64,000 nucleotides of DNA from a virus. Its lineage: Duplodnaviria; Heunggongvirae; Uroviricota; Caudoviricetes. Made by a program: the position numbers and the translations under genes. The DNA lies in IMG/VR virus record IMGVR_UViG_3300010373_001364, positions 112,116-176,115 of that record; one strand, written 5' to 3'. Positions within the stretch are counted from its first letter, which is position 1. Each line of letters starts with the position of its first letter. Of this stretch, positions 8,090 to 60,819 are shown piece by piece. The notes under the pieces were generated by a model. The model was not told where the DNA came from. It did not search any database and saw only the letters and a program-made list of their open reading frames with translations.

Positions 8090-9037
8090 ATGGGTTGCGA
8101 GAAACTGAATGAAAACGAAGTTGCTGAAGTAATTACCAAAAATGTAGCACTCGAAGAAGCAAAAAAAGTCGATGAGAGGTGGTCGAAAGCCATTGAGTCT
8201 ATCGGCAAAATTAAAGATAAGTTCAAGCGTTCTTGTATTTGTCTCCTGTTGGAAAACCAGCGGTTAATGAACGAGGCTTCCACTTCTACGGAGATGAACT
8301 CTCCAGAGACTAAGAAGAAGCTCATCGATCTGGCTGCGGCGGTGTACCCTAATCTACTTGCCTGGAATCTTGTTTCTGTCCAACCCCTTGTTGGTCCTAC
8401 CGGATTGATCTATCATCTGAGTCGTAGAATTAGCCCGGTCAACAATGAACCGATGTTGACCATTGATTCTCAAGATATTGTTGCCAGGACGAGAAGGCTG
8501 AAGAGGCAGGTTTGTGACGATTTCGGTCCCAAGGATGTAGCACAGGCGGTAATCGATGACTTGGATACCGAGGTCTTGAAAGACCTGTCCAACAACTGCG
8601 CAACGGTTGGCTGCGTCAACCTGAAGGCTTACAAATCAGACAAGGCTGTTCGTTTGGCAGAGGCTTTGGAAAGTGTGATTAAAGACGCCAAGGAGAAGTT
8701 TAACGAGAAGATGTTTGAAGGATGCGAGCCGAACTGGATGGTCGTGAATGATAAACTTCACAGGCGTTTGAAGCCTGCCTTTGATTCTCTTGATCTTTGC
8801 AAAAACCTCTCTATATACCCTCACAAGGGTGTTGAGGGCGTTTTGATCGGGCGCAAGGGGGAATCTTACATGGACAGCGGTTATGTACTTTCGCCCTATG
8901 TTCCGTTCACCTTGACGCCAGCCATCAATTTTGGTATTTTCGGGTTGCTCACCCGTTACGGCAAGAAGCTGCTCCCGAATGGGGCATCTTATTACAGTCG
9001 GGTGACAGTCTTCGATGACGTTCCCGAAGAGGAGTGA
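8090..9037 (+). CDS. T4 gp23/gp24-family (major-capsid-type) protein, unusually short (315 aa)
   Basis: Strong local resemblance to the T4 gp23 N-terminal region: ENQ...NSPE and AAAVYPNLLAWNLVSVQPLVGPTGLIYHL versus T4 IPNLIAFDICGVQPMNSPTGQVFAL. Much shorter than gp23 (521 aa). Confidence 0.4.
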   Translation: MGCEKLNENEVAEVITKNVALEEAKKVDERWSKAIESIGKIKDKFKRSCICLLLENQRLMNEASTSTEMNSPETKKKLIDLAAAVYPNLLAWNLVSVQPLVGPTGLIYHLSRRISPVNNEPMLTIDSQDIVARTRRLKRQVCDDFGPKDVAQAVIDDLDTEVLKDLSNNCATVGCVNLKAYKSDKAVRLAEALESVIKDAKEKFNEKMFEGCEPNWMVVNDKLHRRLKPAFDSLDLCKNLSIYPHKGVEGVLIGRKGESYMDSGYVLSPYVPFTLTPAINFGIFGLLTRYGKKLLPNGASYYSRVTVFDDVPEEE

Positions 9038-9038
9038 A

Positions 9039-10616
9039 ATGGATAGAAGGCTTGATGTACTTTTTGTTCACCCAGGAGATGCACATCTGCTGTATCAGGG
9101 TTTGAGCAACAAGTTTAGCGCCATAGAGACACCTACTTGGTGTCTCTTGCTGGCACAGTCTTGTCGCTCTAAAGGCTTTGGCGTAGCCATCTTGGACTGC
9201 GACGCTGAACGCCTGAATTACGAGCAGGCGGTGACTCGCATTAAGGAAGCCAATCCGCGATTGGTGTGCTTTGTCGTTTATGGACAAAACCCGAATGCTG
9301 GCACCACAAAGATGACTGGTGCTATTGGAGTTGCGGCTAAATTGAAGACGGAATACCCAGAGTATCCCGTCTGCTTTGTCGGTTCGCACACCAGTGCCCT
9401 CCCCAGAGAGGTGCTTGCCTACCCGTTCGTAGACTTTGTTCTGCTGAACGAGGGCGTCTATGCCTTGAGGAACCTTCTGGCGACCGATCTGAAGACCGAT
9501 CTTCAGAGTATTAAGGGCATTGGTTGGAAGGAAAGCGCTCCACTTAAGATGCACGCTGATCAGTGGTGCTGCGAGTCGAATAAGTGTCTCTGTGTTTTGA
9601 ATGCACCAGAGCGTGTGGTTCCAAATGAGTTGATGGATGTGGACTTGCCGGGTTCTGCCTGGGATTTGTTGCCCTACAACAAGCAGCCCTTTGATCTTTA
9701 TCGCTCCTGTAACTGGCACGCGGACTTCCATGAAGACAAGAGGCGTCCTTATGCTGCCATCTACTCTTCCTTGGGGTGCCGCTTCAAATGCGACTTCTGC
9801 ATGATCAATATCTTGAATCGTGTAGATAACAGCGACGGCGTGAACGCTGCTCACTCTCCGAACATGAGATTTTGGTCGCCTAATTTCATGTTGAAGGAGT
9901 TTGACAAGTTAGTCAATGCCGGGGTTACGACCATCCGCATCAGCGACGAGATGTTCTTTCTTGACAAGAGATACTTTGAGCCATTGCTACAAGGATTGGT
10001 AGATCGTGGTTATGGTAAGGAACTGCTGATGTGGGCGTATGCTCGCGTGGATACGGTGCGAGCCAAATACCTTGACTTATTCAACAAGGCTGGTGTGAAG
10101 TGGCTGGCGCTGGGCATTGAGGCTGCCGACCAGAAGATCCGCAAAGAGATTACCAAGGGCACCTATGAAGAAGTAGACATCCGAGAGATCGTCAAGCAAA
10201 TCGCAGATTCTGGAATCAGTACGATCTCCAACTACATCTTCGGTCTGCCGGATGACGACTACAACTCCATGAATGCCACCCTTGACCTGGCGTCGGAGTT
10301 GAATACAGAGATGGCGAATATGTACCCTTGCTTTGCTCTGCCGGGTTCGCCTCTCTATTATCAAGCAGGGCAAAAAGGATGGGCGTTGCCTCAAACATTC
10401 GAGGCTTGGTCCTTCCACTCTTACGAATGTTTGCCTCTTCCTACTAAGCACTTGAGTGCTGCGGAGGTATTACGCTTCCGTGATCGTGCTTGGGATATGT
10501 ACTTCAATCGTCCTGAGTACCATAAGGTAGTTGAGGACAAGTTCGGTAAGGTGGCAGTAGATCACATCAAAGAAATGGCGTCCATCAAACTCAAAAGAAG
10601 GCTGTTAGGAGATTGA
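9039..10616 (+). CDS. Cobalamin-binding radical SAM enzyme (class B radical SAM, methyltransferase-like)
   Basis: GAGGAG RBS then ATG 9039. N-terminal B12-binding-like Rossmann region (VLFVHPGD, AILDCDAE). Radical SAM cluster motif CRFKCDFC (Cx3Cx2C). 525 aa, typical of B12-rSAM. Confidence 0.8.
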   Translation: MDRRLDVLFVHPGDAHLLYQGLSNKFSAIETPTWCLLLAQSCRSKGFGVAILDCDAERLNYEQAVTRIKEANPRLVCFVVYGQNPNAGTTKMTGAIGVAAKLKTEYPEYPVCFVGSHTSALPREVLAYPFVDFVLLNEGVYALRNLLATDLKTDLQSIKGIGWKESAPLKMHADQWCCESNKCLCVLNAPERVVPNELMDVDLPGSAWDLLPYNKQPFDLYRSCNWHADFHEDKRRPYAAIYSSLGCRFKCDFCMINILNRVDNSDGVNAAHSPNMRFWSPNFMLKEFDKLVNAGVTTIRISDEMFFLDKRYFEPLLQGLVDRGYGKELLMWAYARVDTVRAKYLDLFNKAGVKWLALGIEAADQKIRKEITKGTYEEVDIREIVKQIADSGISTISNYIFGLPDDDYNSMNATLDLASELNTEMANMYPCFALPGSPLYYQAGQKGWALPQTFEAWSFHSYECLPLPTKHLSAAEVLRFRDRAWDMYFNRPEYHKVVEDKFGKVAVDHIKEMASIKLKRRLLGD

Positions 10617-24710: not shown

Positions 24711-24871
24711 AAAAAGAAGAATATGAGGAGTGCAAGGCTTTACTGGATGCTTGGTTCGAGGACGAAAAGTACGCCGAGCAAGGTCACTTCGGCAGGGCAC
24801 TCTGGGCTGTAAGGAAGCTTGCTGCATCTTTGGGTTACAAAGTTGTTTCAGAGGTGAATTATGAGGGTTGA
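24707..24871 (+). CDS. hypothetical small protein (54 aa)
   Basis: ATGA-coupled at both ends between the HAD and DegT genes. Below the ORF-track length cutoff. Confidence 0.3.
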   Translation: MKKEEYEECKALLDAWFEDEKYAEQGHFGRALWAVRKLAASLGYKVVSEVNYEG

Positions 24872-25997
24872 ATTCGGGGAATTGAGAATCGGTGAGAGGG
24901 CAAAGCAAAACCTTCTCCACTGTATTGAAACCCATTGGGCATCAGGCGGACCCAAGGTGAAGGAGTTTGAGGAGAGGTGGAGCAAGCTCTTTGACTACGG
25001 CTACAGCAAGGCGATGTCTTCTGGGACGGATGCTTGCATCAATGCTTGCATGGCTCTCTATGACTTCGGTGCCCAACGCGGTGACGAGATCATCGTCCCA
25101 GCCCTCTCCTTCATTGCTACCTCCAATGCTGTTCTTGCAGCGGGCTTCAAGCCGGTGTTTGTGGATATTGAACGGGAAACCCTGAACATCGATCCCAAGA
25201 AGATCGAGGCGAAGATCACACCGAAGACTCGCGCCATCATGTGTGTTCACACGATGGGCAAACCCTGCGAGATGGACGCCATCATGAACATCGCCTGGAG
25301 ATACAAACTCTTGGTGATCGAGGATTCCTGTGAGGCTCATGGTGCTAAGTACAAGGGTGAATACATCGGCAAGCACGGTGATATGGCTTGTTTCTCCTTC
25401 TATGTTGCTCACCTGATTTGTTGTGGCGAGGGCGGCATGGTCAGCACCGACCACAAGGAGTTCGCAGATGTCCTGAACAGTACCCGCACTCATGGTCGCA
25501 AGAATGGCGATCTTTATTTTAACCATGTTCGCTTCGGGTTAAACTCCAAGATGAATGATCTGGAGGCTTCCTTGGGGTTGGAGGCGGTTGAACCACAGAC
25601 CTTCTGGTGGGTCTTCAACACCCGCAAAGACAATTTGGTCTATCTACTTGAGGGTATGCGTGACCTTGAGGAACATTGCTTTTTTAACAAGGAAGAGAAG
25701 TATGAAGTCAACTGCCCCCACGCTTTCAGCATCGTGCTGAAAGATCCGGTACGCCATCCAATGAAAGAGCTTTACGCCTTCTTAGAGCAAAACTCGATCA
25801 AGGCGAAGAGGAACTTTGGTTGCATTCCTACCCAGCAGGGGAGTTTCGCCTGGATGGGACATAAGCTGGGCGAGTTTCCAGAGGCAGAATATGTTGGTGA
25901 TAATGGTTTGCACTTCGGCTGTCACCAATTCCTGAAAAAAGATGACTTGGACTACATAATCTCGATAGTTCATGATTGGTTCAAGTTGAAGGGATGA
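24861..25997 (+). CDS. DegT/DnrJ/EryC1/StrS-family PLP-dependent nucleotide-sugar aminotransferase
   Basis: 378 aa. Family hallmarks ASGGPKVKEFEERW, IIVPALSFIATSNAV, MGKPCEMDAIMNIA, DSCEAHGAKY and lysine-containing FSFYVAHL region. Confidence 0.85.
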   Translation: MRVEFGELRIGERAKQNLLHCIETHWASGGPKVKEFEERWSKLFDYGYSKAMSSGTDACINACMALYDFGAQRGDEIIVPALSFIATSNAVLAAGFKPVFVDIERETLNIDPKKIEAKITPKTRAIMCVHTMGKPCEMDAIMNIAWRYKLLVIEDSCEAHGAKYKGEYIGKHGDMACFSFYVAHLICCGEGGMVSTDHKEFADVLNSTRTHGRKNGDLYFNHVRFGLNSKMNDLEASLGLEAVEPQTFWWVFNTRKDNLVYLLEGMRDLEEHCFFNKEEKYEVNCPHAFSIVLKDPVRHPMKELYAFLEQNSIKAKRNFGCIPTQQGSFAWMGHKLGEFPEAEYVGDNGLHFGCHQFLKKDDLDYIISIVHDWFKLKG

Positions 25998-26532: not shown

Positions 26533-27014
26533 AAAACCTAGACGGCTACATGGAGCAGAAGCGCAGGCTCAAGGACCATGACTACATGCAGATAGCCTTG
26601 GAGGTCGCCGCAGAAGCAAAATCCAGGGGTGATCTCCCCATCGCCGCCGTCTTGGTCTGGGCTGGAGGGAAACAACTTGTCGAGCATGATACGAGGTACT
26701 CCGAGCATAATCCCCTTTGTTATGCGGTCATCAACCTGATCAACAAAGCTGCGGGCACTTTAGGTAGGAAGAAGCTGAGTGAAGCGGTGTTGTATAGCAA
26801 TCTGGAACCTAACCTACTTTGTGCTTTGGCGATTGAATCTGCTGGTGTTAAAGAAGTTGTGTTCGGAGCTTATGATGACAGAGATGGTTTCGTTAGTGCT
26901 AATTTGCTGAAGGAGAACACTCAGTTAGACATAACAGCAATCGGTGGCGTACTTGGGCAGAGGTGTTGCGAGTCGTTGCCACAAAGTATGCAAGAGCATG
27001 TTCGTTATGAATGA
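26529..27014 (+). CDS. TadA/CDA-fold deaminase homologue with substituted zinc ligands and catalytic Glu (predicted inactive)
   Basis: Collinear with TadA: AAVLVWAGGKQLV, then HNPLCYAVINL where TadA has HDPTAHAEIMAL (His to Tyr, Glu to Val), and LEPNLLCALA where TadA has LEPCVMCAGA (first Cys to Asn), then EVVFGAYD. GGGAGG RBS then GTG. Confidence 0.55.
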   Translation: MKNLDGYMEQKRRLKDHDYMQIALEVAAEAKSRGDLPIAAVLVWAGGKQLVEHDTRYSEHNPLCYAVINLINKAAGTLGRKKLSEAVLYSNLEPNLLCALAIESAGVKEVVFGAYDDRDGFVSANLLKENTQLDITAIGGVLGQRCCESLPQSMQEHVRYE

Positions 27015-30621: not shown

Positions 30622-30860
30622 GAATGACAGGAAGATTCAGGTTCCAAAAGTTTGAGTTTGAGGTTGGTCAACTTGTTGAAGTAGTTAACAGCTTTGATCA
30701 TGAGAATGGACTCGTTGGTAAGGTGGTAAACCGCCGTAACGATTCTTACGAACTTGAGGACGGTTCGTGGTATCAGGTAGACAATTGGTATAATGTCTCC
30801 ATCAAAGAATTGTCACCAGAAGTACAGGGATTCCCAGAAGGGATGTTGCGAGGTAGATAA
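30618..30860 (+). CDS. hypothetical protein (80 aa)
   Basis: ATGA-coupled. Confidence 0.45.
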   Translation: MRMTGRFRFQKFEFEVGQLVEVVNSFDHENGLVGKVVNRRNDSYELEDGSWYQVDNWYNVSIKELSPEVQGFPEGMLRGR

Positions 30861-32454: not shown

Positions 32455-32604
32455 ATGTATCACAACTACAACAAGAACAGCGGCTTTGATTGGATTCTTC
32501 TGATCATGATGATTGTGCTGATGTTGGCGATAGGCATCATGCAGTTTCTGCTGTTTATGGCATTAGTGCGTTGTCCTATCTTTATCCGGGGATATCCTTT
32601 ATGA
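32455..32604 (+). CDS. small membrane protein (49 aa)
   Basis: ATG directly after the upstream TAA. TM ILLIMMIVLMLAIGIMQFLLFMAL. Confidence 0.35.
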   Translation: MYHNYNKNSGFDWILLIMMIVLMLAIGIMQFLLFMALVRCPIFIRGYPL

Positions 32605-33043
32605 ACTTCTCCCACTCCGGGTGGTTGTGTACCTCAATTTTGTTCTTCGCATAGGTATTGGCATAAGCGTGGCAGAAGAGTTCTTCTGCGTTTTGATGTA
32701 GCTTGTGCTTGGTCTTGTTGACGATCCTTTGCCATTCCTTTTTCAACTTACTATTGTGAGACATCCACCTTTCGTAAACGAGGTGCCCAATCTCATGTAG
32801 CATGGCAAACTGTCTACCGTAATTCCACGGTGCAGCAACATGAATCTCTTTCTTCTTTTCGTTGTTAAGGTGAATCATGCCGATGTTATCGTCGCTCCCC
32901 TTGAGGGTACAGCCGCCCTCAAACTTGAATTTGTACCCCTTTACAAGTGCTTGGTGAGCCTTGGGTAGCCCCTTAATAGTGTCCCTGACTTCTTGGTGGG
33001 CTTCTGTTTCAATTAGGAATTCTCGGAACCCGGTCATAATCAT
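32582..33043 (-). CDS. ImmA/IrrE (M78)-like zinc metallopeptidase
   Basis: MLHEIGHLVYERW (HEIGH zincin motif) in an alpha-helical ~150-aa protein. Minus strand, convergent with the small TM genes. Confidence 0.5.
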   Translation of the reverse strand: MIMTGFREFLIETEAHQEVRDTIKGLPKAHQALVKGYKFKFEGGCTLKGSDDNIGMIHLNNEKKKEIHVAAPWNYGRQFAMLHEIGHLVYERWMSHNSKLKKEWQRIVNKTKHKLHQNAEELFCHAYANTYAKNKIEVHNHPEWEKFIKDIPG

Positions 33044-33108
33044 GTTGGTATCTAGGTCTGCCCATCGTTGTTTTTCAGGGTATACCAGTCTACTATTGAA
33101 CTAAGAAC

Positions 33109-33117
33109 TGCTATAAT
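33109..33117 (+). promoter_or_regulatory. extended -10 promoter element (TGcTATAAT)
   Basis: TG at 33109-10 and TATAAT at 33112-17. Only a weak -35 (TCTACT) 17 nt upstream. Confidence 0.3.
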
Positions 33118-33119
33118 AA

Positions 33120-33427
33120 AGAGTCAGTAGGATTCAGCGAAGCTCTGGGGGCGAGATAAGAAGTTGCGGAGTTTCATGGAGCAGTCTATGAAGTCGAAGC
33201 GTCCCTTCGACACACTGACAGGGGTGCCGTGTGGCGATTAAGCTACAGAACCGACAACCAGTTGATGACCAAAGCAACTCTGCTGACCGCAGCAGGCGAG
33301 CGGCAAGGTGCGCGTGCCTTGCGGGGCATAGGACGGGTTGTTGGGGGCGGTCACGGTGCCAGGCTCTAGTCGTGTGGGGAACACGGTCCTTTGGGTGAAC
33401 CAAAGCACAATCTTCGCTGTACGCACA
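33120..33427 (+). ncRNA. candidate structured non-coding RNA (unidentified class)
   Basis: ~340-nt interval with no ORF of 60 aa or more on the + strand. GC markedly higher than surroundings. Several stem-loops readable by eye (GTCGAAGcgtccCTTCGAC, GCAAGGtgcgcgtgCCTTGC, CTTTGGgtgaaCCAAAG). Promoter-like element upstream, intrinsic terminator at the 3' end. Confidence 0.3.
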
Positions 33428-33462
33428 GTCCTGCCGCATATCTTTGCGGCAGGACTTTTTTA
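33428..33462 (+). terminator. rho-independent terminator
   Basis: Perfect 11-bp stem GTCCTGCCGCA/TGCGGCAGGAC, loop TATCTT, then TTTTTTAT. Confidence 0.65.
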
Positions 33463-33488
33463 TGCCATGTACGCTAGATAAAGGTATC

Positions 33489-34232
33489 ATGGCGAAAAGA
33501 AACAACAAACTCAAACGTAACGAAGAGAGAGAAGCCAGGGAATTTGGGGAGGGCGTCTTCGATTCATTGCGAGAAATCATTCCTGTCAAAACAACGCCGT
33601 CTTTTGATATCTCGGATCAATTCAAAAACGTGGCTCAACGACTGGCTTATTCAGTCTATGAGCAAAACGATGTTGTGTTTCTTCTAGGTCCGGCTGGTAC
33701 AGGCAAGAGTCATCTAGCCTGTATGTTTGCCATCAATGAGTTGATTAGAGAAACCAAAAGTCGTATCGTTTTAACACGACCTATTGTCGAAGCCGGTGAA
33801 AGTCTAGGATATCTTCCTGGCACCTTTTCCGAGAAGACCGACCCTTACATGCTGCCGCTTTATGATTGCATTCGCAAGATGATCCCGACAAAGGATCAGA
33901 ATGCCGAGTATGTGCAAAACAACACAGAGGTGGCACCCCTGGCGTACATGAGGGGTCGGACGTTTGATAACAGCGTTTGCATCCTTGATGAGGCGCAAAA
34001 CTGCACTTGGGAACAACTGGTGTTGTTCTTGACCCGCCTCGGCGAGGGTAGCAAGATGATTATTACAGGCGATCCTCATCAATCTGACATTGGGAGAGAT
34101 TCTGCTCTGATGGACGTAGCACGTCGCCTGGATGGTCTTGAGGGCGTAGGTACAGTGAAGTTCACTGAGGAACACATTGTCCGCCACAAGCTAGTTTCAC
34201 AGATCCTCAAGAGGTTGCAGAGGAATTCCTAA
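33489..34232 (+). CDS. phoH: PhoH-like ATPase
   Basis: Walker A GPAGTGKSHLA. PhoH motifs RPIVEAGESLGYLPG, ILDEAQNCT and IITGDPHQSD. An alternative ATG at 33462 lies directly after the terminator T-tract. Confidence 0.85.
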   Translation: MAKRNNKLKRNEEREAREFGEGVFDSLREIIPVKTTPSFDISDQFKNVAQRLAYSVYEQNDVVFLLGPAGTGKSHLACMFAINELIRETKSRIVLTRPIVEAGESLGYLPGTFSEKTDPYMLPLYDCIRKMIPTKDQNAEYVQNNTEVAPLAYMRGRTFDNSVCILDEAQNCTWEQLVLFLTRLGEGSKMIITGDPHQSDIGRDSALMDVARRLDGLEGVGTVKFTEEHIVRHKLVSQILKRLQRNS

Positions 34233-35401: not shown

Positions 35402-38275
35402 ATGGCGACAGTTATCATCCTCACGTCTGGAACCAGTTGGACAGTACCGTCTGACTTTAATCCCAACAACAACACCATCGAGGCTATCGGCGCTGGTGGT
35501 GGTGGCGGACAAGGTGCGTTTGGCACCAATCAAGCGGGCGGTGGCGCAGGTGGCGGTGCTGAATACAGGAAATTTACAAACTTCGATCCTCAAGGTGCCA
35601 CATTTATACCATACCAAATTGGTAGCGCCGGTATTGGTGATACGACAGGGACTGGCGGCGGTAGTGGCGGGGCTACCATATTTAACACCACGACTTTGAA
35701 GTCTGCGGGCGGCTTAGGTGGCGGTGCTGGCTCTGGTGTTACACAGGGTAATGGCGGTCAGCCCGCTTTTGGAGGTTCGGGCGGTATCAGAATTGGCGGC
35801 GGTGCTGGTGGTTCTGGTAATCCAGGCGGCGGCGGCAATGGTGCTGGTGGCGGCGGTGGTGGAGGTGCGGGAGGACCAAACGGTGCCGGTGTTAATGGCA
35901 CTGGCTGGAGCGGCACAGGAACCACGCCAATCGGCAATGCCGGCGGTGCTGGCGATAATGGTAATGTCGCTGGTGGTTCAGGTGGATTGGCAGGTAATCA
36001 GAATGCTGGAGGCACGGGTGGTAATGGCACAAGTTGGACTGCTACTATTGGTGGTGCCACAGCGGGCGCTGGTGGCGGTGGTGGTGGAGGCTATGGTGGC
36101 GTAAATGATACGGCTGCTTTTGCCGGCGGAAGAGGCGGTAGCTATGGTGCCGGCGGCGGCGGTGGTGGCGGTGGTGGTACTTTTAGTTCTACACCGGGCA
36201 ATGGAGGCAACGGCGGTCAGGGCGTTATTGTAATTACCTACACGCCGTTAACTAGCTACAGCGTTACGAGTTCTGGTGGTGCAAATCTAAAGGGTAGCGC
36301 GGGCGTATCCGTAAAATATAAATACACAGGTGCCGGCAATGGTAGTCTGGGAGGAACCAGTCCATTTAAGGAGCTAGTTAATGCTCCCATGTCTGGGAAG
36401 GCGGGATTTGGCAGTAGTGCAGGAGCATCGGTGATATTCAATTATGTTGCTAGTGGTGGCTTGAATTCTGGCAGTAGCGCTCGCGGTGCTGACAGTTATT
36501 CAGAATATGCCGCTTCAGGCGACATGAAGTTGAGTGGCAGTGCTGGCGTTATCTCTCCTTCCTTCCGTTATGCCGCCAGTGGTGGTTTGAACTCTGGTGG
36601 TTCCAGTGATAGAACCATTGATCTAAAGTACGCAGCAAGTGGCGGCTTAGGTTCCAACATCTCTTCCAATGCTGCCATCGGAGGTTATGAGCCTATTGGT
36701 GGCTTAAATATCGGCAATAGTGCCAGAGCTACTGTCACCTATCGTTACACTGCCAGCGGTGGTCTGGGTTCGGGTGGATCTTCTAAAGATAATGCATACG
36801 ACTCCGCTGAAGGCTCAGGAGGTGTCATCCTTGATGGGCGCGCGGACGCTGCTCTTGTATTCAACTACGAAGCCTCTGGAGGCTTGGGCTGCGGTGGTAA
36901 AGCCCCTACTCAGATCAGTGGAAACATCATTACAACCTTTACTTGGAATGTGAGTGAAGGTGTTTTAAGGAACTGGCGCGTAGAGGGTAAATGTGTATCA
37001 GTTAATCACCCTTGCCCGCCGACAAGTAATCAAGACTCAGGTTGTGCCAGTGGCAACACCATGCAGTTCATGATGACGGTCGCGGCGCACAGTCTTACTG
37101 ACCTTTGCCAGAAGTTACAAGCACGCGGTTGGACCGGACCAATCAAGAAGATTCAGGTATGGTCGCAACCAACTAACAGATCAGACTGGTCGTCAACCAC
37201 CGATCCTTCTTGTAATACTCTCAGTACGGTTGATTTCAGTAAAGTACCAGCGTGTATCGGCGGGTCCACTGGTTCTGGCAGTTCTAGTGGATATGATTTT
37301 ACTGTAGATCAAAATTTGGCTGTGACCGGCAAAGTCACTGCCAGTTTGATCTTCGATGTCAACTATTCATACACAATGTCGGGTGGTTTGGGTGCTGGTG
37401 GTTCAGCCGTTAAGCCGCCAACCGTCTCCAGCCACTTCTCTTATACTGCATCGGGTGGTCTTGGTGCGGGCGGTGGTGCGCGGGCTGCTTCTCCTCAATT
37501 CTTCTACTATGTCGCCTCTGGTGGTCTGGGTAGTGGTGGAAGTAGCATTGTGTTTCCGAGTGACTATGGTCTTATTTCGGCTTCTGGTAAAACCTCCATG
37601 TTGGTGTCCGACGTGGGGATCACCTTTGGCTATCAAGCTGCCGCCACTTTAATTCCAAGCACGGGTCAAGTGGCGGCTTCCTGCTGTAGTGCCCTGAACC
37701 TGCCACAGGTCATCTTTGCTAGGCACGATCTGAATCGTTCCTATACACTAACGAACTTCTTGAATGTTAATGGTTTCACCTTGCCACAAGTGTTAAATCT
37801 AATGTATAGTAGACAGAGGAATGCTTGGTACTCTAATTCACAGTTCCGAGGCACTTCAGTTGACCAAACTGAACAACAGGTGTGGAACGTCATCTTCGAG
37901 TTCGGATGCTTGACGGAGAATGGATTGCTGGATGTGCCATCGGATGTGTGGGGTTTCTCCACTATGGTCCGTAGGAGAAGCTTAACTAATTCAAGAGTCG
38001 AGGTTACTAGATTGGTTTTGGAGTTTGATCCTACACAGATTTGTACCGCCCCCGGCTTGTTGAAGTTTGATTTCTCTTTTGATGTCAATTTGCTGATAAC
38101 TTCACCAGCCGTTGTGAGGGCTGTGGTGTTCTTAGACGAGTTGGGTGCTTTTGGCGGACCAAACTTCATAAGTAACCCAACTGCTTCCTTCGAGGTGAGT
38201 GCTTCGTTCCCCGATGTTGGTGTCGGGATGTTTGATCAATCCGCCCCTCTACAAAAAATACTGTTGGGTGTCTGA
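35402..38275 (+). CDS. Glycine-rich tail fibre / receptor-binding structural protein (957 aa)
   Basis: N-terminal 300 aa is poly-Gly/Ala/Asn low complexity (GAGGGGGQGAFGTNQAGGGAGGG...). It is followed by 8 or more copies of a (Y)xASGGLGxGGS repeat and a Cys-containing C-terminal globular region. Composition typical of phage fibres. Confidence 0.7.
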   Translation: MATVIILTSGTSWTVPSDFNPNNNTIEAIGAGGGGGQGAFGTNQAGGGAGGGAEYRKFTNFDPQGATFIPYQIGSAGIGDTTGTGGGSGGATIFNTTTLKSAGGLGGGAGSGVTQGNGGQPAFGGSGGIRIGGGAGGSGNPGGGGNGAGGGGGGGAGGPNGAGVNGTGWSGTGTTPIGNAGGAGDNGNVAGGSGGLAGNQNAGGTGGNGTSWTATIGGATAGAGGGGGGGYGGVNDTAAFAGGRGGSYGAGGGGGGGGGTFSSTPGNGGNGGQGVIVITYTPLTSYSVTSSGGANLKGSAGVSVKYKYTGAGNGSLGGTSPFKELVNAPMSGKAGFGSSAGASVIFNYVASGGLNSGSSARGADSYSEYAASGDMKLSGSAGVISPSFRYAASGGLNSGGSSDRTIDLKYAASGGLGSNISSNAAIGGYEPIGGLNIGNSARATVTYRYTASGGLGSGGSSKDNAYDSAEGSGGVILDGRADAALVFNYEASGGLGCGGKAPTQISGNIITTFTWNVSEGVLRNWRVEGKCVSVNHPCPPTSNQDSGCASGNTMQFMMTVAAHSLTDLCQKLQARGWTGPIKKIQVWSQPTNRSDWSSTTDPSCNTLSTVDFSKVPACIGGSTGSGSSSGYDFTVDQNLAVTGKVTASLIFDVNYSYTMSGGLGAGGSAVKPPTVSSHFSYTASGGLGAGGGARAASPQFFYYVASGGLGSGGSSIVFPSDYGLISASGKTSMLVSDVGITFGYQAAATLIPSTGQVAASCCSALNLPQVIFARHDLNRSYTLTNFLNVNGFTLPQVLNLMYSRQRNAWYSNSQFRGTSVDQTEQQVWNVIFEFGCLTENGLLDVPSDVWGFSTMVRRRSLTNSRVEVTRLVLEFDPTQICTAPGLLKFDFSFDVNLLITSPAVVRAVVFLDELGAFGGPNFISNPTASFEVSASFPDVGVGMFDQSAPLQKILLGV
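36430..37545 (+). repeat. intragenic tandem-like repeats encoding the ASGGLG(S/A)GGS motif
   Basis: Motif recurs at ~36440, 36570, 36630, 36750, 36870, 37375, 37445 and 37510. Confidence 0.5.
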
Positions 38276-53087: not shown

Positions 53088-53420
53088 ATGTCCGCAACAG
53101 TTGATAAAATCATGGCGAAAAGAGAAGAGAAGCTCAAGGCGGCAATCAAGGCACTTGGCGGCGGCAAGAACAAGATCGCTGAGTCCTTGAAGGCTAAGAA
53201 GATCAAGGGCGTCCGTGGCTCTACAGAGGATTGTCCCTTCGCCCACTACGCCGGCAAGGTTTTTCCCAAAGCTTCTTGTGTTGAGGTGGACGTTGACACC
53301 ATCTCTGTCGGTTTCGACAATGGTGAGTTCATTGACTTGAATCTTCCGAAGGCTGTCACCGCCTTTATCGAGGCTTTCGATGATGGTGAGTACGACTTCC
53401 TCGCCAAAGAAGAGGAGTAA
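53088..53420 (+). CDS. hypothetical protein (110 aa)
   Basis: Lys-rich N-terminus, acidic C-terminus. Confidence 0.5.
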   Translation: MSATVDKIMAKREEKLKAAIKALGGGKNKIAESLKAKKIKGVRGSTEDCPFAHYAGKVFPKASCVEVDVDTISVGFDNGEFIDLNLPKAVTAFIEAFDDGEYDFLAKEEE

Positions 53421-53421
53421 G

Positions 53422-54942
53422 ATGTACGACTTGTCAATCAAGATGGCAGGGGAGTGGGAAGGGCACCATCTCATCAATGGTAAGTTTCCCAAGACGAAGT
53501 GTGAAGTTTCTAAGGTCAACCCGGCTAATGGGAAGCATCTGGGTTTCTTCCCCTACGCCACTCCCCAGCAAGTTGCTGATGCCGTTTGCGTTGCGCATAA
53601 CGCTTGGCATCAGTGGAAAAAAATGAGTCGAGTCAAAAGGTCTGATCTCTTCTTTGAACTCGCCAAGCTCGTCCAGCGTGACCAAAAGATCCTTGCTGAG
53701 ATTATCTCTCTGGAAACGGGTAAGAACCTCAACGAGGCGCACGCTGAGGTTGTGGAGTCTCTTCATATGTGCCAGTGGGTTGCCGCCCAAGGACGACAAC
53801 CCTGCGGTGACTGGATGGCTTCTGAAATTGCCGCTAAGGATGCTTATGTCATTCGTAAACCGCGTGGTGTGGTAGCGGTCATTAGTCCTTGGAACTTCCC
53901 TCTCGCCATTGGAAGTTTCTGGACAACTGGTCCGGCGCTTCTTGAGGGCAATGTGGTCGTCCACAAGCCCTCTGAGTTGACGCCTTTCACTGCCGAGTAT
54001 GCAGCCCGGCTCTATGTGGAGGCGGGTTTTCCGGCTGGGGTGTATAACCTCATTCATGGTGATGGCTCTGTAGGTGCTACCCTTGCCAGTATGGAGTTCG
54101 TCAGATCCATATTGTTTACGGGTAGCGCAAAGGTGGGACAACTGATTCGTGGTGTTTGCGCCAGTAGATTCGACCGCAATTGCAGCACCGAGACGGGCAG
54201 CAAGTCTGCCACCATCCTTTTCGCTGATGGCAATAAGGAGTTGGCACTTGAGGCAATGCTCGCCAGCGCATTCAAGTTGTCTGGTCAAAGATGTGTTTCT
54301 TCTGGTCGTCTGTTGATTCAAGAAGGTATCTACGACGACTTCTGTGAGAGATTTGTGTCACTTGTCAGGGAAGTTGCCACCTGTGGTGATCCATTTGAGT
54401 CACCAGTTCCCTATTATGGACCTTTGATTAACGAGAAGCAGCGACATCGTGTTGAGGAATACAACAACCTCGCAACCGGACTCGATGGCATCAAGGTGTT
54501 ACTCCAGGGTGCCCGGCTGGACCGCCCCGGTTACTACCTGACTCCGCACGTCTACCAAGCCGCGTGGGAGAGTGAGTGGACAGGGGCTATCCGTCGCAAG
54601 ATACTCACCGAGGAGGTGTTTGGACCCCATGTGGCGCTGATCCCCTTCCGCGATGTTTACGATGCTGTGAACATCTATAACGACACCGAGTATGGTTTAG
54701 CAGTTGGTGTCATCACCAGCGATTTCCGCAAGATGCGGATCATGCGGGAGGAGTGTAACGCTGGTATGATCTACATGAATGGTGGCTCAATTGCTGCGGA
54801 ATCACACCTTCCATTTGGGGGAGTCAATAAATCCGGCAATGGAATGAAGACGGCAGCAGGCACCTACAGGACAGTCACCGATGAGGTAGCCGTTACCGTG
54901 AATTACGAACATGGCATAACTTGGGCACAAGGTATGCACTGA
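53422..54942 (+). CDS. NAD(P)-dependent aldehyde dehydrogenase family protein
   Basis: 506 aa. ALDH hallmarks VISPWNFP, GSAKVG, FKLSGQRCVSSGRLL (catalytic Cys), ESHLPFGGVNKSGNG (glutamate/EL(P)FGG motif). Confidence 0.85.
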   Translation: MYDLSIKMAGEWEGHHLINGKFPKTKCEVSKVNPANGKHLGFFPYATPQQVADAVCVAHNAWHQWKKMSRVKRSDLFFELAKLVQRDQKILAEIISLETGKNLNEAHAEVVESLHMCQWVAAQGRQPCGDWMASEIAAKDAYVIRKPRGVVAVISPWNFPLAIGSFWTTGPALLEGNVVVHKPSELTPFTAEYAARLYVEAGFPAGVYNLIHGDGSVGATLASMEFVRSILFTGSAKVGQLIRGVCASRFDRNCSTETGSKSATILFADGNKELALEAMLASAFKLSGQRCVSSGRLLIQEGIYDDFCERFVSLVREVATCGDPFESPVPYYGPLINEKQRHRVEEYNNLATGLDGIKVLLQGARLDRPGYYLTPHVYQAAWESEWTGAIRRKILTEEVFGPHVALIPFRDVYDAVNIYNDTEYGLAVGVITSDFRKMRIMREECNAGMIYMNGGSIAAESHLPFGGVNKSGNGMKTAAGTYRTVTDEVAVTVNYEHGITWAQGMH

Positions 54943-58489: not shown

Positions 58490-58867
58490 ATGGAGAAGGA
58501 TCATTTCGTCTTTGTGTATGGCACGCTTAAGCGTGGTCAGAGTAACCACGGCTGGCTGTGCAAGTCCTACTTCGTTAAAGAAGCCAGGACCGCCAAGAAG
58601 TACCTTCTGTACGACCTTGGACCTTATCCCTGCCTGGTGGCTGCACCACACGGCAAGGGCAAACACATCAACGGCGAACTGTATCAGGTTACAGAGAGTG
58701 TTCTCCGGGGTCTTGACACCCTTGAGGGCGTAGGGTACGGACTTTACGAGCGCGTAAGGATAAAGCTGCTCGACACAAAAGAACCAGTCTGGGGATATCT
58801 CTATCTCCGAGACGTATCTCGACTACAAGAGGCAGGAGACTCTTGGAGCGAAAGTGAGGATAAATGA
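58490..58867 (+). CDS. Gamma-glutamyl cyclotransferase-like (AIG2/GGCT fold) protein
   Basis: FVYGTLKRGQSNH (YGSL/TLxxG GGCT signature). Conserved Glu-containing C-terminal half (GELYQV). Confidence 0.75.
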   Translation: MEKDHFVFVYGTLKRGQSNHGWLCKSYFVKEARTAKKYLLYDLGPYPCLVAAPHGKGKHINGELYQVTESVLRGLDTLEGVGYGLYERVRIKLLDTKEPVWGYLYLRDVSRLQEAGDSWSESEDK

Positions 58868-60819
58868 TAGGTTTGGCGATTACGGCTGGTGTGATTCTTT
58901 TTGTGGTCTTGTTTGTCGCGTGGCTGTTTATCCGCGTGATCGGCAACGACGAGGTTGGAGTCGTGGAGCGCTGCTGGTCTGCTGTTGGCTCCTTAAAGGA
59001 GGGCGACATCATTGCCCTCAAGGGTGAAGCTGGCTATGAGGGCGATGTTCTGCGTGGTGGTCTTCATTTCGGTTTGTGGCGCTGGCAGTTCAGCGTCCAC
59101 AAGACCAAGCTGATTACCATTCGCCAGGGGAAGATTGGTTACATCTTTTCCCGCGTTGGTAAGCCTCTTGAGCCGGGTCAAACACTTGCCAAGGTAGTCT
59201 CTTGTAATGACTACCAGAACGTCAAGTCGTTCCTTGAGGCGGATGGTCAAAAAGGTCGTCAGCGTGCCATCCTTCGTGAAGGTGTGTATGCTATTAACCT
59301 CGCCGCTTTCAGTGTGATCACTGAGGATAGTGTCTACTCTATCATCAGAGATAAGAACCTTGACGAGTGGAAGAACGCTCTATCCTCCATTCACGGATTC
59401 GATCCGGTAGTGGTCGGTGGTGGTCACGATAACATTGCCATTGTCACCGTCCACGATGGTCCTTCTTTGCCTCCTGGCGAGATCATTGCCCCGGCAGTTG
59501 GCACCAATCGTGAGGATGTGGGCTATCACAACAACTACCAAGACATTGAGAAGTTCTTGTCTGCTGGTGGTATGCGTGGTCTTCAGTACGCAACCCTCAT
59601 CGACGGCACCTACTTCATCAACCGCTGGTTCGCTACGGTCGAGTACATTAACAAGGAAGTGGTCGAGATCGGCAACGTCGGCGTTGTCGTTAGCTACTAC
59701 GGCAAGGCTGGCAAGGACACCAGCGGTACGACCTTCCGCCACGGCGAGCGTGTCCATGAGGGCGAGCGTGGTGTATGGGAGACGACTCTGGGACCGGGCA
59801 AGTATCCGTTCAACACCTATGCCGGCAAGATCATTCGCGTACCTACGACGAACTTCGTGCTGCACTGGATCACTGGCAAGAGCGAAGGTCACAGATACGA
59901 TGAGAGCCTGAAGTCTATCGAGTTGATCACCAAGGACGCTTACGAGCCGTCTCTTCCACTGTCCGTGGTGGTTCACATCGACTACCAAAAGGCTCCGAAC
60001 GTCATCCAACGCTTCGGCGATGTCAAGCAGCTTATCACCCAGACGCTTGACCCGCTACTGTCTGCTTACTTCCGTGATGTGGCTCACCAGAAGACCATGC
60101 TGGAACTGGTTCATAGCCGTGATGAAATTCAGAAGCAGGCGCGTGACGAGTTGCGTACCAAGTTCCGCGACTTTGATATTGAGTGCGTTGATGTTTTGAT
60201 CGGCAAACCAGATTCCACCGGGGATGACGGTAAGATCGAGAGCTTGCTTGAGCAGCTTCGTTTGCGTAACTTGTCGATTGAACAGATCAAGACCTTCAAT
60301 CAACAAGAAGAGGCTGCTAAGAAGCAGCAGTCTTTGAACGAAGCTATCGCCAAGGCTGAGATGCAGACATCTCTGTCTGAGTCGAAGGTGAAGATCGAAA
60401 TCGCCGCGAATGAGGCTGATGCTGAACTTCAGCGTGCCCACAAGGACGCCGAGAAGACTGTTGTCCTTGCCAAGGCGCGTTCTGAGCAGTCCATCCTTGA
60501 AGGTCAAGGCGATGCCAAGAAGATCAACAGCGTTGGTCTTGCCGAGGCTGATGTCCTTCGCCAGAAGATCGCCTCCTTCGGTGACAGTCAGTTGTATGCC
60601 CTGAGCGTGATTGCTTCCAGTCTTTCCCAGAGCAAGCAACCGTTGGTGCCGAGCATCATGAGTGGCGACGGCAAGCACAATAACATGCTTGACGTGTTGA
60701 TGACCTTGCTTGTCAGTGAGAAGTCGGGCATCCGCTCCTTGGGGAACAACGATCCCAGGATCGTTGAGACTGCTCATTCCCCCAAGGTCGCTGATGCAGT
60801 TTCTGTCAGCAAGAATTGA
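58864..60819 (+). CDS. SPFH/band-7 domain protein (flotillin/YqiK-like) with N-terminal TM helix
   Basis: ATGA-coupled. TM LAITAGVILFVVLFVAWLFI. SPFH core. Long Ala/Glu/Lys coiled-coil (EAAKKQQSLNEAIAKAEMQ...AEADVLRQKIASFG). Confidence 0.7.
   Translation: MIGLAITAGVILFVVLFVAWLFIRVIGNDEVGVVERCWSAVGSLKEGDIIALKGEAGYEGDVLRGGLHFGLWRWQFSVHKTKLITIRQGKIGYIFSRVGKPLEPGQTLAKVVSCNDYQNVKSFLEADGQKGRQRAILREGVYAINLAAFSVITEDSVYSIIRDKNLDEWKNALSSIHGFDPVVVGGGHDNIAIVTVHDGPSLPPGEIIAPAVGTNREDVGYHNNYQDIEKFLSAGGMRGLQYATLIDGTYFINRWFATVEYINKEVVEIGNVGVVVSYYGKAGKDTSGTTFRHGERVHEGERGVWETTLGPGKYPFNTYAGKIIRVPTTNFVLHWITGKSEGHRYDESLKSIELITKDAYEPSLPLSVVVHIDYQKAPNVIQRFGDVKQLITQTLDPLLSAYFRDVAHQKTMLELVHSRDEIQKQARDELRTKFRDFDIECVDVLIGKPDSTGDDGKIESLLEQLRLRNLSIEQIKTFNQQEEAAKKQQSLNEAIAKAEMQTSLSESKVKIEIAANEADAELQRAHKDAEKTVVLAKARSEQSILEGQGDAKKINSVGLAEADVLRQKIASFGDSQLYALSVIASSLSQSKQPLVPSIMSGDGKHNNMLDVLMTLLVSEKSGIRSLGNNDPRIVETAHSPKVADAVSVSKN

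Follow-up and report, generated by a model that had tools for sequence, protein, structure and literature searches.

The 64,000-nt stretch of phage DNA analysed here (positions 112,116 to 176,115 of IMG/VR virus record IMGVR_UViG_3300010373_001364, Caudoviricetes; called the window below, with positions counted from its first letter) raises the question of what lies in a 445-nt non-coding gap (33044–33488) between a minus-strand open reading frame (ORF) of 153 aa (32582–33043) and the phage gene phoH. A preliminary description of the sequence had proposed that the gap holds a candidate structured non-coding RNA (ncRNA). We find that the interval encodes a structured ncRNA on the + strand, as seen from its conservation, its strand preference, its secondary structure, a kissing loop and its lack of coding potential. 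The proposal is strongly supported: five relatives keep the element with abundant compensatory pair changes and a covarying loop–loop contact, and they share no conserved ORF. Two of the outcomes that the preliminary description had named as refuting, a lack of conservation and a conserved ORF among the homologues, were checked and did not occur.

Covariation identifies a + strand RNA

Relatives of the element were found through a protein-database series of PhoH homologues, whose contigs we compared for synteny. The gene order glycosyltransferase, divergent ~153-aa gene, slot and phoH is kept, and a homologous ~335-nt element occupies the same slot in the same orientation in the loci L050, L051/L052, L063, L065 and L093. 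The L093 copy is truncated at its 5′ side by the contig end, and the comparisons below therefore use five full-length copies, namely those of the window, L050, L051, L063 and L065. Pairwise RNA identity among these copies is 50–63%.

Covariation across related phages, a test suggested in the preliminary description, revealed compensatory changes. From a MAFFT alignment of the full-length copies, RNAalifold derived a consensus of 77 pairs in 12 helices. Standard pairs fill 88.8% of the 375 pair cells compared with 79.3 ± 1.1% in shuffled alignments, and double-sided changes affect 35 of the 77 pairs compared with 15.3 ± 2.8 in shuffles (0 of 500 reach the observed number) and 8–11 in slid controls. 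The covariation score is 0.460, as against 0.276 in shuffles and 0.12–0.17 in slid controls. A caveat is that the structure was derived from the same sequences that were then scored. Given the slid controls and the pattern in individual helices (double changes in 10 of 14 pairs of P6 and in 5 of 6 pairs of P3), the case is still strong despite this caveat and the kinship of the sequences, which is considered further below.

The distribution of G·U pairs identifies the strand. There are 58 G·U cells when the alignment is read on the + strand and 10 when it is mirrored, and the paired fraction is 88.8% compared with 76.0%. This asymmetry shows that the function resides in a transcript of the + strand, as opposed to a DNA cruciform or an RNA from the minus strand. 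Neither the structure nor the strand can be settled by folding energy alone, since the z-scores relative to dinucleotide shuffles are similar for the + strand (z = −3.2, minimum free energy −141.9 kcal/mol) and the minus strand (z = −3.7). When the window sequence is constrained to the consensus, it folds at −132.2 kcal/mol compared with −141.7 kcal/mol for the unconstrained fold.

No open frame is common to the five full-length copies, and the indels in their alignment are out of frame. Consistent with the preliminary description, the interval contains no + strand ORF of 60 aa or more; the largest one between the 153-aa ORF and the phoH ATG has 55 aa.

A kissing interaction connects two hairpin loops

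The 5′ part of L2, the loop of hairpin P2, is complementary over 5–6 bp to L4, the loop of hairpin P4, in all five full-length copies, with sequences that differ between them. L2 and L4 read GGGGCG/CGUCCC in the window, AGGACG/CGUCCU in L050, GGAACG/CGUUCU in L051, AGGAC/GUCCU in L065 and GAGGCG/UGCCUC in L063. When counted on excerpts of both loops, 29 of 30 cells are paired, and double-sided changes are seen in 4 of the 6 pairs. Only 1 of 500 shuffles reaches this percentage of paired cells and 8 of 500 reach the number of covarying pairs, while slid controls are 30–68% paired. The interaction was found by eye and its register was chosen by hand, which for L063 differs by one nucleotide from the register of the MAFFT alignment. 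The complementarity would fit either an intramolecular or an intermolecular contact.

Anatomy of the fold

All elements of the fold lie on the + strand. Helix P1 (33135–33142, CAGCGAAG, with 33412–33419, CUUCGCUG) closes it; this is helix 1 of the consensus, with 89% of its cells paired and two pairs double-changed from GC to AU. P1 is followed directly by the P2 hairpin (33143–33171, CUCUG/CGGAG; helix 2, 93% paired), which presents the conserved 19-nt loop L2 with the consensus GRGRNCGAGRUAAGAAG. Within L2, the kissing segment GGGGCG (33148–33153) precedes the sequence RUAAGAAG. The long-range helix P3 connects UGGAGC (33177–33182) with GCUCUA (33363–33368) and is replaced by UAGGAU/AUCCUA in L051 and by UGGAGU/ACUCCA in L063, reflecting the double-sided changes mentioned above. 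Hairpin P4 (33193–33211, GUCGAAG-CGUCC-CUUCGAC) carries L4 (33200–33205, CGUCCC), the 3′ kissing partner. Its stem varies yet pairs in the relatives, as GUCGG/CCGGC in L050, GCCGA/UCGGC in L065 and GUCG/CGAC in L063.

The second long-range helix, P5a (33223–33230 with 33353–33360), comes from the constrained fold and has moderate support. Duplexes of −9 to −15 kcal/mol are found at the equivalent position in all five copies with differing sequences, and the strands are complementary in the window, L050 and L051. RNAalifold placed a local hairpin GGCG...UGCC (33346–33360) here, but this hairpin has no double-changed pair and is disrupted in both L063 and L065; we therefore preferred P5a. P5 (33231–33246) is a variable hairpin with the loop GAAA in L050 and GGAA in L051. 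The P6 domain (33250–33345) is closed by a helix of 33250–33259 with 33336–33345, which corresponds to the strongly covarying helix 5, and encloses P7, P8 and P9. P8 (33280–33295) has the loop ACCG and is 94% paired, and the CCGC of its loop is invariant; P9 (33303–33322) is 91% paired.

The P6 domain is followed by the invariant junction GGCGGUC (33346–33352), and UGGCGGU (~33345–33351) is likewise invariant. The P8 loop segment GACCGC (33285–33290) likely pairs with GCGGU(C) of the junction to form a second pseudoknot. We infer this pairing from the complementarity of the two segments, which are both invariant in all six sequences and thus outside the reach of covariation.

The 3′ part of the fold consists of two further hairpins. 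P10 (33369–33387) has a 7-bp stem (helix 11, 100% paired, three pairs double-changed) and a conserved GRGRA pentaloop, which reads GGGGA in the window and GAGGA or GAGAA in the relatives. GGA in hairpin loops is what a CsrA/RsmA sponge would present, and we rejected this possibility since L063 and L093 have GAGAA in the P10 loop and none of the other GGA sites is conserved. P11 (33389–33405, CUUUGG-GUGAA-CCAAAG) is the CTTTGG-GTGAA-CCAAAG stem-loop of the preliminary description; comparison with the relatives by eye shows a variable stem and a conserved GUGAR in the loop. The same description had pointed to GGGGGCG occurring twice in direct orientation. Both copies exist (~33147 and ~33344), but the repeat as such is not conserved and is hence due to chance: one copy belongs to the kissing segment of L2 and the other to the invariant UGGCGGU.

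Promoter-like element and terminator

The left edge of the element is marked by a perfect extended −10 sequence, TGcTATAAT (33109–33117, + strand), as had been noted, which is a putative promoter. There is no −35 element at this site, and a scan for promoter hexamers does not list it. The motif TGnTATAAT occurs three times in the window (30786–30794, 33109–33117 and 51969–51977) compared with 1.17 expected. All three sites are on the + strand between listed ORFs and are candidate early promoters for the host RNA polymerase. In L051, TGcTATTTT aligns with the window element at the same distance from P1 and overlaps the end of an unrelated upstream ORF of 78 aa, and L063 and L065 show, by eye, AT-rich −10-like hexamers 7–17 nt upstream of P1.

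The right edge is formed by an intrinsic terminator (33427–33461, + strand). Its perfect stem and T6 tract agree with the preliminary description, but the stem comprises 12 bp and not 11; it encloses a 6-nt loop and has a folding energy of −22.7 kcal/mol. Across the relatives this hairpin (helix 12) is 93% paired and shows compensatory changes. The linker between P1 and the terminator has 7 nt in the window and 7–9 nt overall, and its sequence is variable. The predicted primary transcript thus extends from 33124, roughly 10 nt before P1, to 33461 on the + strand and is ~335–340 nt long, its ends being deduced from the positions of the promoter (5′) and the terminator (3′). Promoter use and the exact RNA ends are predictions.

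When the 5′ arm of the terminator was scanned for duplexes with the RNA that precedes it, no antiterminator partner common to all five copies was found. The arm (CCUGCCGC or CCUUGCC; 33427–33438 in the window) resembles the 3′ strand of P9 and is complementary to the 5′ strand of this hairpin, the conserved CGGCAAGG (33301–33309 in the window), which lies ~125 nt upstream. The duplex of P9 5′ strand and terminator arm has −10.6 to −15.4 kcal/mol in the window, L050 and L063. L065 forms only a weak one (−6.5 kcal/mol), and L051 has none. This complementarity could be due to chance or represent the remnant of a switching mechanism.

The RNA belongs to no Rfam family

The preliminary description had suggested a scan for several RNA classes, including tmRNA (transfer-messenger RNA), RNase P, 6S RNA, group I introns and riboswitches. 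We scanned the whole window with Rfam 15 (4227 models, among them group I and II introns, T-box, GOLLD, ROOL, HEARO, OLE, raiA and pRNA) and obtained no match at the gathering threshold; a permissive scan of the whole window returned only sub-threshold noise. In a 651-nt slice searched at E up to 10, there were only four weak matches, all far below their gathering scores. Two of these overlap the terminator hairpin (Hrs13, 19.8 bits compared with 52; AaHKsRNA41, 13.7 compared with 97). The five relatives have no Rfam family in common. Similarly, a literature search on phoH-associated or similar phage RNA motifs found nothing relevant. All tests of membership having failed, the RNA matches no Rfam 15 family and is new at the family level, whereas its broad kind, orphan structured phage ncRNAs, is already known.

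ARAGORN detected no tRNA or tmRNA in the 64-kb window and nothing in six related loci. As stated in the preliminary description, the phage encodes SmpB: the ORF at 46267–46710 matches Pfam PF01668 with E = 2e-56. The window therefore contains a genuine smpB gene without a detectable tmRNA or tRNA.

The RNA occupies a variable slot in one phage lineage

A covariance model of the element (R1) matches the window at 33122–33469 with 321 bits and the full-length copies with 275–321 bits; it finds the element only once in the 64-kb window. Comparison of the phoH loci revealed that the content of the slot varies. It holds the element in the window and in L093 (PhoH 87% identical to that of the window), L063 (79%), L050 (78%), L051/52 (76%) and L065 (71%). 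In L051/52, an additional 78-aa ORF (L051 2427–2663) precedes the RNA. The slot instead contains a 303-aa ORF in L064 (1764–2675; PhoH 75%) and a 76-aa ORF in L055-57 (L055 2748–2978; PhoH 69%), and it is essentially empty in L053/54, L058 and L059-62 (PhoH 61–63%). The slot ORFs of L051 and L055 are not homologous to each other. PhoH identity to the window is thus 71–100% in carriers of the element and 61–75% in five relatives that do not carry it. Because the slot is filled by the RNA, by unrelated ORFs or by nothing, it is a hotspot for variable cargo, and the RNA behaves as accessory cargo. One relative with an empty slot shows long stretches downstream of phoH with few or no called genes (L059 3871–4441 and L060 2293–4443), in which R1 has no match.

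The GC content of the RNA lies above the local average, as had been noted (0.566 compared with 0.487 elsewhere in the window; the maximum, 0.615, is reached at 33200–33399). Across the family, RNA GC ranges from 0.40 to 0.57 and genome GC from 0.37 to 0.50, and the RNA value follows that of each genome. This indicates long residence in the lineage and no recent acquisition from a foreign source. That the RNA looks GC-rich in the window reflects the mild bias of a structured RNA within a genome of higher GC content.

Searches beyond these loci yielded no further copies. blastn of the element and its 7-kb neighbourhood against INPHARED phages detected no relative, and tblastn with PhoH gave identities of at most 50% in the same collection, indicating that the phage has no cultured relative. 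R1 did not find the RNA in 46 IMG/VR PhoH loci (identity of at most 48%). The exact pattern GAAGCTCTGN4CGAGNTAAGAAG has no occurrence in viral contigs or in JGI metagenome contigs, and a looser pattern centred on P10 has none in viral contigs. The core pattern CCGC-N46-66-GGCGG-N14-19-ARTNRTGTGRGRAACA gave 1 viral (IMG/VR), 9 genome (GTDB) and 17 metagenome (JGI) matches, which is about the number estimated for chance, and none was confirmed by nhmmer or R1. The known family thus consists of six sequences from one uncultured phage lineage, represented in ENA, JGI and Logan assemblies. A PhoH identical to that of the window is encoded on a JGI contig.

Possible modes of action

We consider it about evenly balanced whether the element is a stand-alone RNA gene, running from its own promoter to its own terminator, whose product acts in trans. 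The suggestion of a novel phage small RNA (sRNA) made in the preliminary description is in line with this, our best reading, and the term large structured ncRNA would describe it better. In the mechanism that we propose, the host sigma-70 RNA polymerase would start at ~33124 from the TGcTATAAT promoter and halt at the terminator (33427–33461), releasing an RNA of ~335 nt. P1 would bring the two ends of the folded portion together, and the nested long-range helices P3, P5a and P6 and six hairpins would form within it. The L2–L4 kissing contact, and probably the pseudoknot between the P8 loop and GGCGGU, would lock the fold. The folded RNA would then act in trans, its end shielded by the 3′ hairpin and the U-tail, while phoH would be reached by partial read-through or by signals of its own. 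Owing to its size and tertiary structure, the RNA is more likely to be associated with a protein or a ribonucleoprotein (RNP), for which it would most probably serve as binding partner or scaffold, or to be catalytic or self-assembling, than to be a base-pairing sRNA. Both this trans action and the kind of partner are inferences.

Evidence for a stand-alone gene comes from the extended −10 element and the terminator, which tightly bracket P1, and from L051, where the −10-like element stays with the RNA despite the upstream 78-aa ORF. The stand-alone gene is also favoured because of this own-cassette anatomy, because the motif CTAGATAAAGGT-ATG directly upstream of phoH is retained with or without the RNA, and because there is no conserved antiterminator. 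Several observations weigh against it. With six sequences from a single lineage, kinship may inflate the significance relative to shuffles. L050 lacks a good −10 element near P1, and the terminator is separated from the phoH ATG by just 27 nt, a space into which a second sigma-70 promoter would hardly fit and in which no convincing one is found. Furthermore, in relatives without the RNA, such as L059, the corresponding divergent intergenic region contains a TATAAT upstream of phoH, so that the RNA and its terminator may lie in the 5′ untranslated region of phoH behind a shared promoter and formally be a leader. This leads to the alternative of a cis-acting phoH 5′ leader, e.g., a riboswitch-like sensor, an attenuator or an antitermination element of the put/EAR type, with the promoter at 33109 driving both RNA and phoH, which we regard as possible but the less probable of the two. 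The folded RNA would in that case, with the same limited likelihood, set how much transcription passes the terminator at 33427–33461 into phoH and the downstream + strand genes. A leader would explain why every copy immediately precedes phoH and shares its orientation, even where an ORF has been inserted upstream (L051), and the layout resembles that of an aptamer, with a multi-helix fold closed by P1, a kissing loop and a terminator 7–9 nt later; the short distance to phoH and the TATAAT of the RNA-less relatives, which suggests a location of the RNA inside the phoH transcription unit, point in the same direction. However, the best antiterminator partner, the P9 5′ strand, is available in three of five copies but not in L051 or L065, the terminator has a long, perfect stem, and the linker that follows P1 is variable in sequence. 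In addition, an aptamer of ~290 nt would be a large one, the element matches no known riboswitch, T-box or leader model, and close phoH relatives do without it, so that it is dispensable for phoH expression. Linkage to one gene in one syntenic lineage carries no regulatory information either. The stand-alone and the leader reading are not exclusive, since a terminated leader can also be a functional RNA.

The other explanations are far less probable. T4-like phages are rich in group I-like introns and other self-inserting elements, and the presence or absence of the RNA at one site among close relatives, together with a complex fold of long-range helices and loop–loop contacts, would suit a remnant or ORF-less mobile element that landed upstream of phoH. 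We consider this very unlikely, as neither the 651-nt slice (E up to 10) nor the relatives match any Rfam group I or II model, and the element has its own promoter-like sequence and terminator, is situated outside any gene, occurs in a single copy in 64 kb and is adapted in GC to each genome. The slot moreover accepts unrelated protein ORFs, which points to a hotspot for cargo rather than to a site of homing. A tmRNA, degenerate or permuted, that works with the phage SmpB, as the preliminary description had considered, must be rejected as extremely improbable. The bona fide SmpB, the lack of any tmRNA or tRNA detected in the window, the tmRNA-like size and the pairing of the 5′ and 3′ ends speak for this idea, but ARAGORN, which covers permuted forms, is negative in the window and the six related loci, and neither the window nor the relatives match the Rfam tmRNA, alpha, beta, cyano and mt-tmRNA models, even when E values up to 10 are allowed. 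The absence of canonical tmRNA features noted in that description holds: no tRNA-like domain, CCA end or conserved tag reading frame is present. No T-arm or T-loop adjoins the closing helix, where a 7-nt spacer and the variable P11 hairpin are found instead, and this helix (CAGCGAAG/CUUCGCUG) lacks a G3:U70 pair and a CCA or discriminator context and is followed by the terminator within 7–9 nt. SmpB is encoded 13 kb away, and both SmpB and tmRNAs have been documented in huge phages (PMC7162821). The tmRNA partner of SmpB may be encoded elsewhere in the 185–214 kb genome or be that of the host. Equally hard to credit are a protein-coding gene and a non-functional spacer with chance hairpins. 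The window does contain a minus-strand ORF of 151 aa (33134–33589), which the preliminary description did not mention, and a small + strand ORF could be considered as well. The 151-aa ORF is, however, broken in relatives (longest open stretches 56 aa in L050 and 45 aa in L051), has no Pfam match and lies across a gap left empty by gene callers. The substitution pattern is that of a base-paired + strand RNA, and a structure kept at 50–63% identity is incompatible with a neutral spacer.

Comparison with known RNAs and phage cassettes

In kind, the RNA comes closest to GOLLD, ROOL and the phi29 pRNA. GOLLD and ROOL are likewise phage-borne, stand-alone, large and intricately folded ncRNAs with kissing loops supported by covariation. 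Initially interpreted as tertiary contacts, some of these kissing loops proved to bridge separate molecules in cages made of RNA only (PMC12286853). The L2–L4 contact could be intermolecular in the same manner. In contrast to GOLLD and ROOL, the RNA described here has no match to their Rfam models, is roughly half their size at ~335 nt and is not located beside tRNA genes. The phi29 pRNA resembles it in being phage-encoded and structured, with low conservation of sequence and high conservation of structure, and two loops of pRNA carry covarying complementary sequences. pRNA has ~120–174 nt and is located at the genome end of small phi29-like podoviruses, whereas the present RNA has no Rfam Phage_pRNA match, belongs to a T4-like jumbo phage (longest contig >200 kb) whose close relatives can do without it.

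Terminating purine and lysine riboswitches share the junction closed by P1, the kissing loop, the nearby intrinsic terminator and the same-strand gene downstream. They differ from the present RNA, which has no conserved antiterminator, a fold of ~290 nt and no match to a riboswitch class and is absent from close relatives of phoH. Resemblance to tmRNA (ssrA, including two-piece permuted forms) is limited to length, paired ends, possible pseudoknots and a genome that encodes SmpB; a tRNA-like domain, a CCA context and a tag ORF are lacking and all detectors are negative. The cassette as a whole is similar to phage morons, which also combine a promoter-like element with a strong terminator, sit between conserved genes, vary in presence and use slots that take unrelated cargo. 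Unlike in morons, the cargo is an RNA and not a protein, and its GC content is slightly above that of the genome and follows it.

Bacterial and phage RNAs of more than 300 nt with covariation-supported tertiary structure are rare, and most characterized ones are ribozymes, RNP cores and, recently, self-assembling cages. The present RNA combines a clean gene-like anatomy with a compact kissing-loop fold, corresponds to none of the 4227 Rfam families and comes from a jumbo T4-like lineage without a cultured relative. We tentatively raise the possibility, which we judge to be rather unlikely, that it is the first representative of a novel class of phage RNAs, which would be large, have tertiary structure and serve a function of their own. 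In one version, L2–L4 would act as an intermolecular bridge and build an RNA-only oligomer as in ROOL and GOLLD, or the RNA would be a ribozyme or the core of an RNP; in another, a sensor RNA of a new type would control how transcription passes into phoH. This gene often serves as a marker for phages and is among the most widespread phage auxiliary genes; to our knowledge, no function of PhoH has yet been established. Should the RNA have a functional link to PhoH, as a regulator, substrate or cofactor, it would offer an experimental route into PhoH function, and if a sensor RNA indeed gates phoH, it would be the first handle on the signal that controls PhoH. The significance is tempered by the small size of the family, with six sequences from one lineage.

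Locus and genome context

The gene downstream of the RNA, phoH (+ strand, ATG at 33489, stop at 34232), matches Pfam PhoH with E = 2.5e-68. The divergent 153-aa ORF on the other side of the gap (32582–33043, minus strand) contains the HExxH motif HEIGH and has no Pfam match. The preliminary description had called the interval the largest non-coding one of the window, which is plausible: a crude greedy tiling of ORFs gave no larger gap, and the sole comparable one (26533–26943) is covered by listed ORFs.

The RNA cassette is bracketed by an inverted pair of CTAGATA sequences, which are located 5–8 nt before the start codons of both divergent genes. CTAGATA itself (33474–33480, + strand; context CTAGATAaaggtatcATG) lies in the flank outside the RNA, with the phoH ATG 8 nt further on, and its inverted copy TATCTAG (33049–33055, minus-strand sense; context CTAGATAccaacATG) lies 5 nt before the start of the 153-aa HExxH ORF. 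The pair is kept in the relatives, including those without the RNA. The exact sequence CTAGATA occurs only 5 times in 64 kb, which argues against a general promoter; the pair may be a shared operator or a translation-initiation signal. Similarly, we rejected CTAGATAAA as a general phage promoter since its 14 one-mismatch matches compared with 9.6 expected represent no enrichment.

The gene content of the window indicates a T4-like jumbo phage rich in auxiliary metabolic genes. It includes an N-terminal Gp23 match, MazG, DnaJ, Amidoligase_2, an SPFH/Band 7 protein and SmpB. Metabolic genes encode a B12-binding radical S-adenosylmethionine (SAM) protein, a thiamine pyrophosphate (TPP)-dependent enzyme, an aldehyde dehydrogenase and a DegT aminotransferase, and sugar-modifying functions are represented by two NAD epimerases/dehydratases and several glycosyltransferases. 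This set of auxiliary metabolic genes (248–1897, 9015–10616, 24861–25997, 53380–54942, 58864–60819 and others) is unusually rich for a phage. An ORF of 957 aa at 35402–38275 has a glycine-rich, low-complexity N-terminal half and a GC peak of 0.60–0.65 at 35700–36200, which is above that of the RNA region; it may encode a fibre or collagen-like structural protein.

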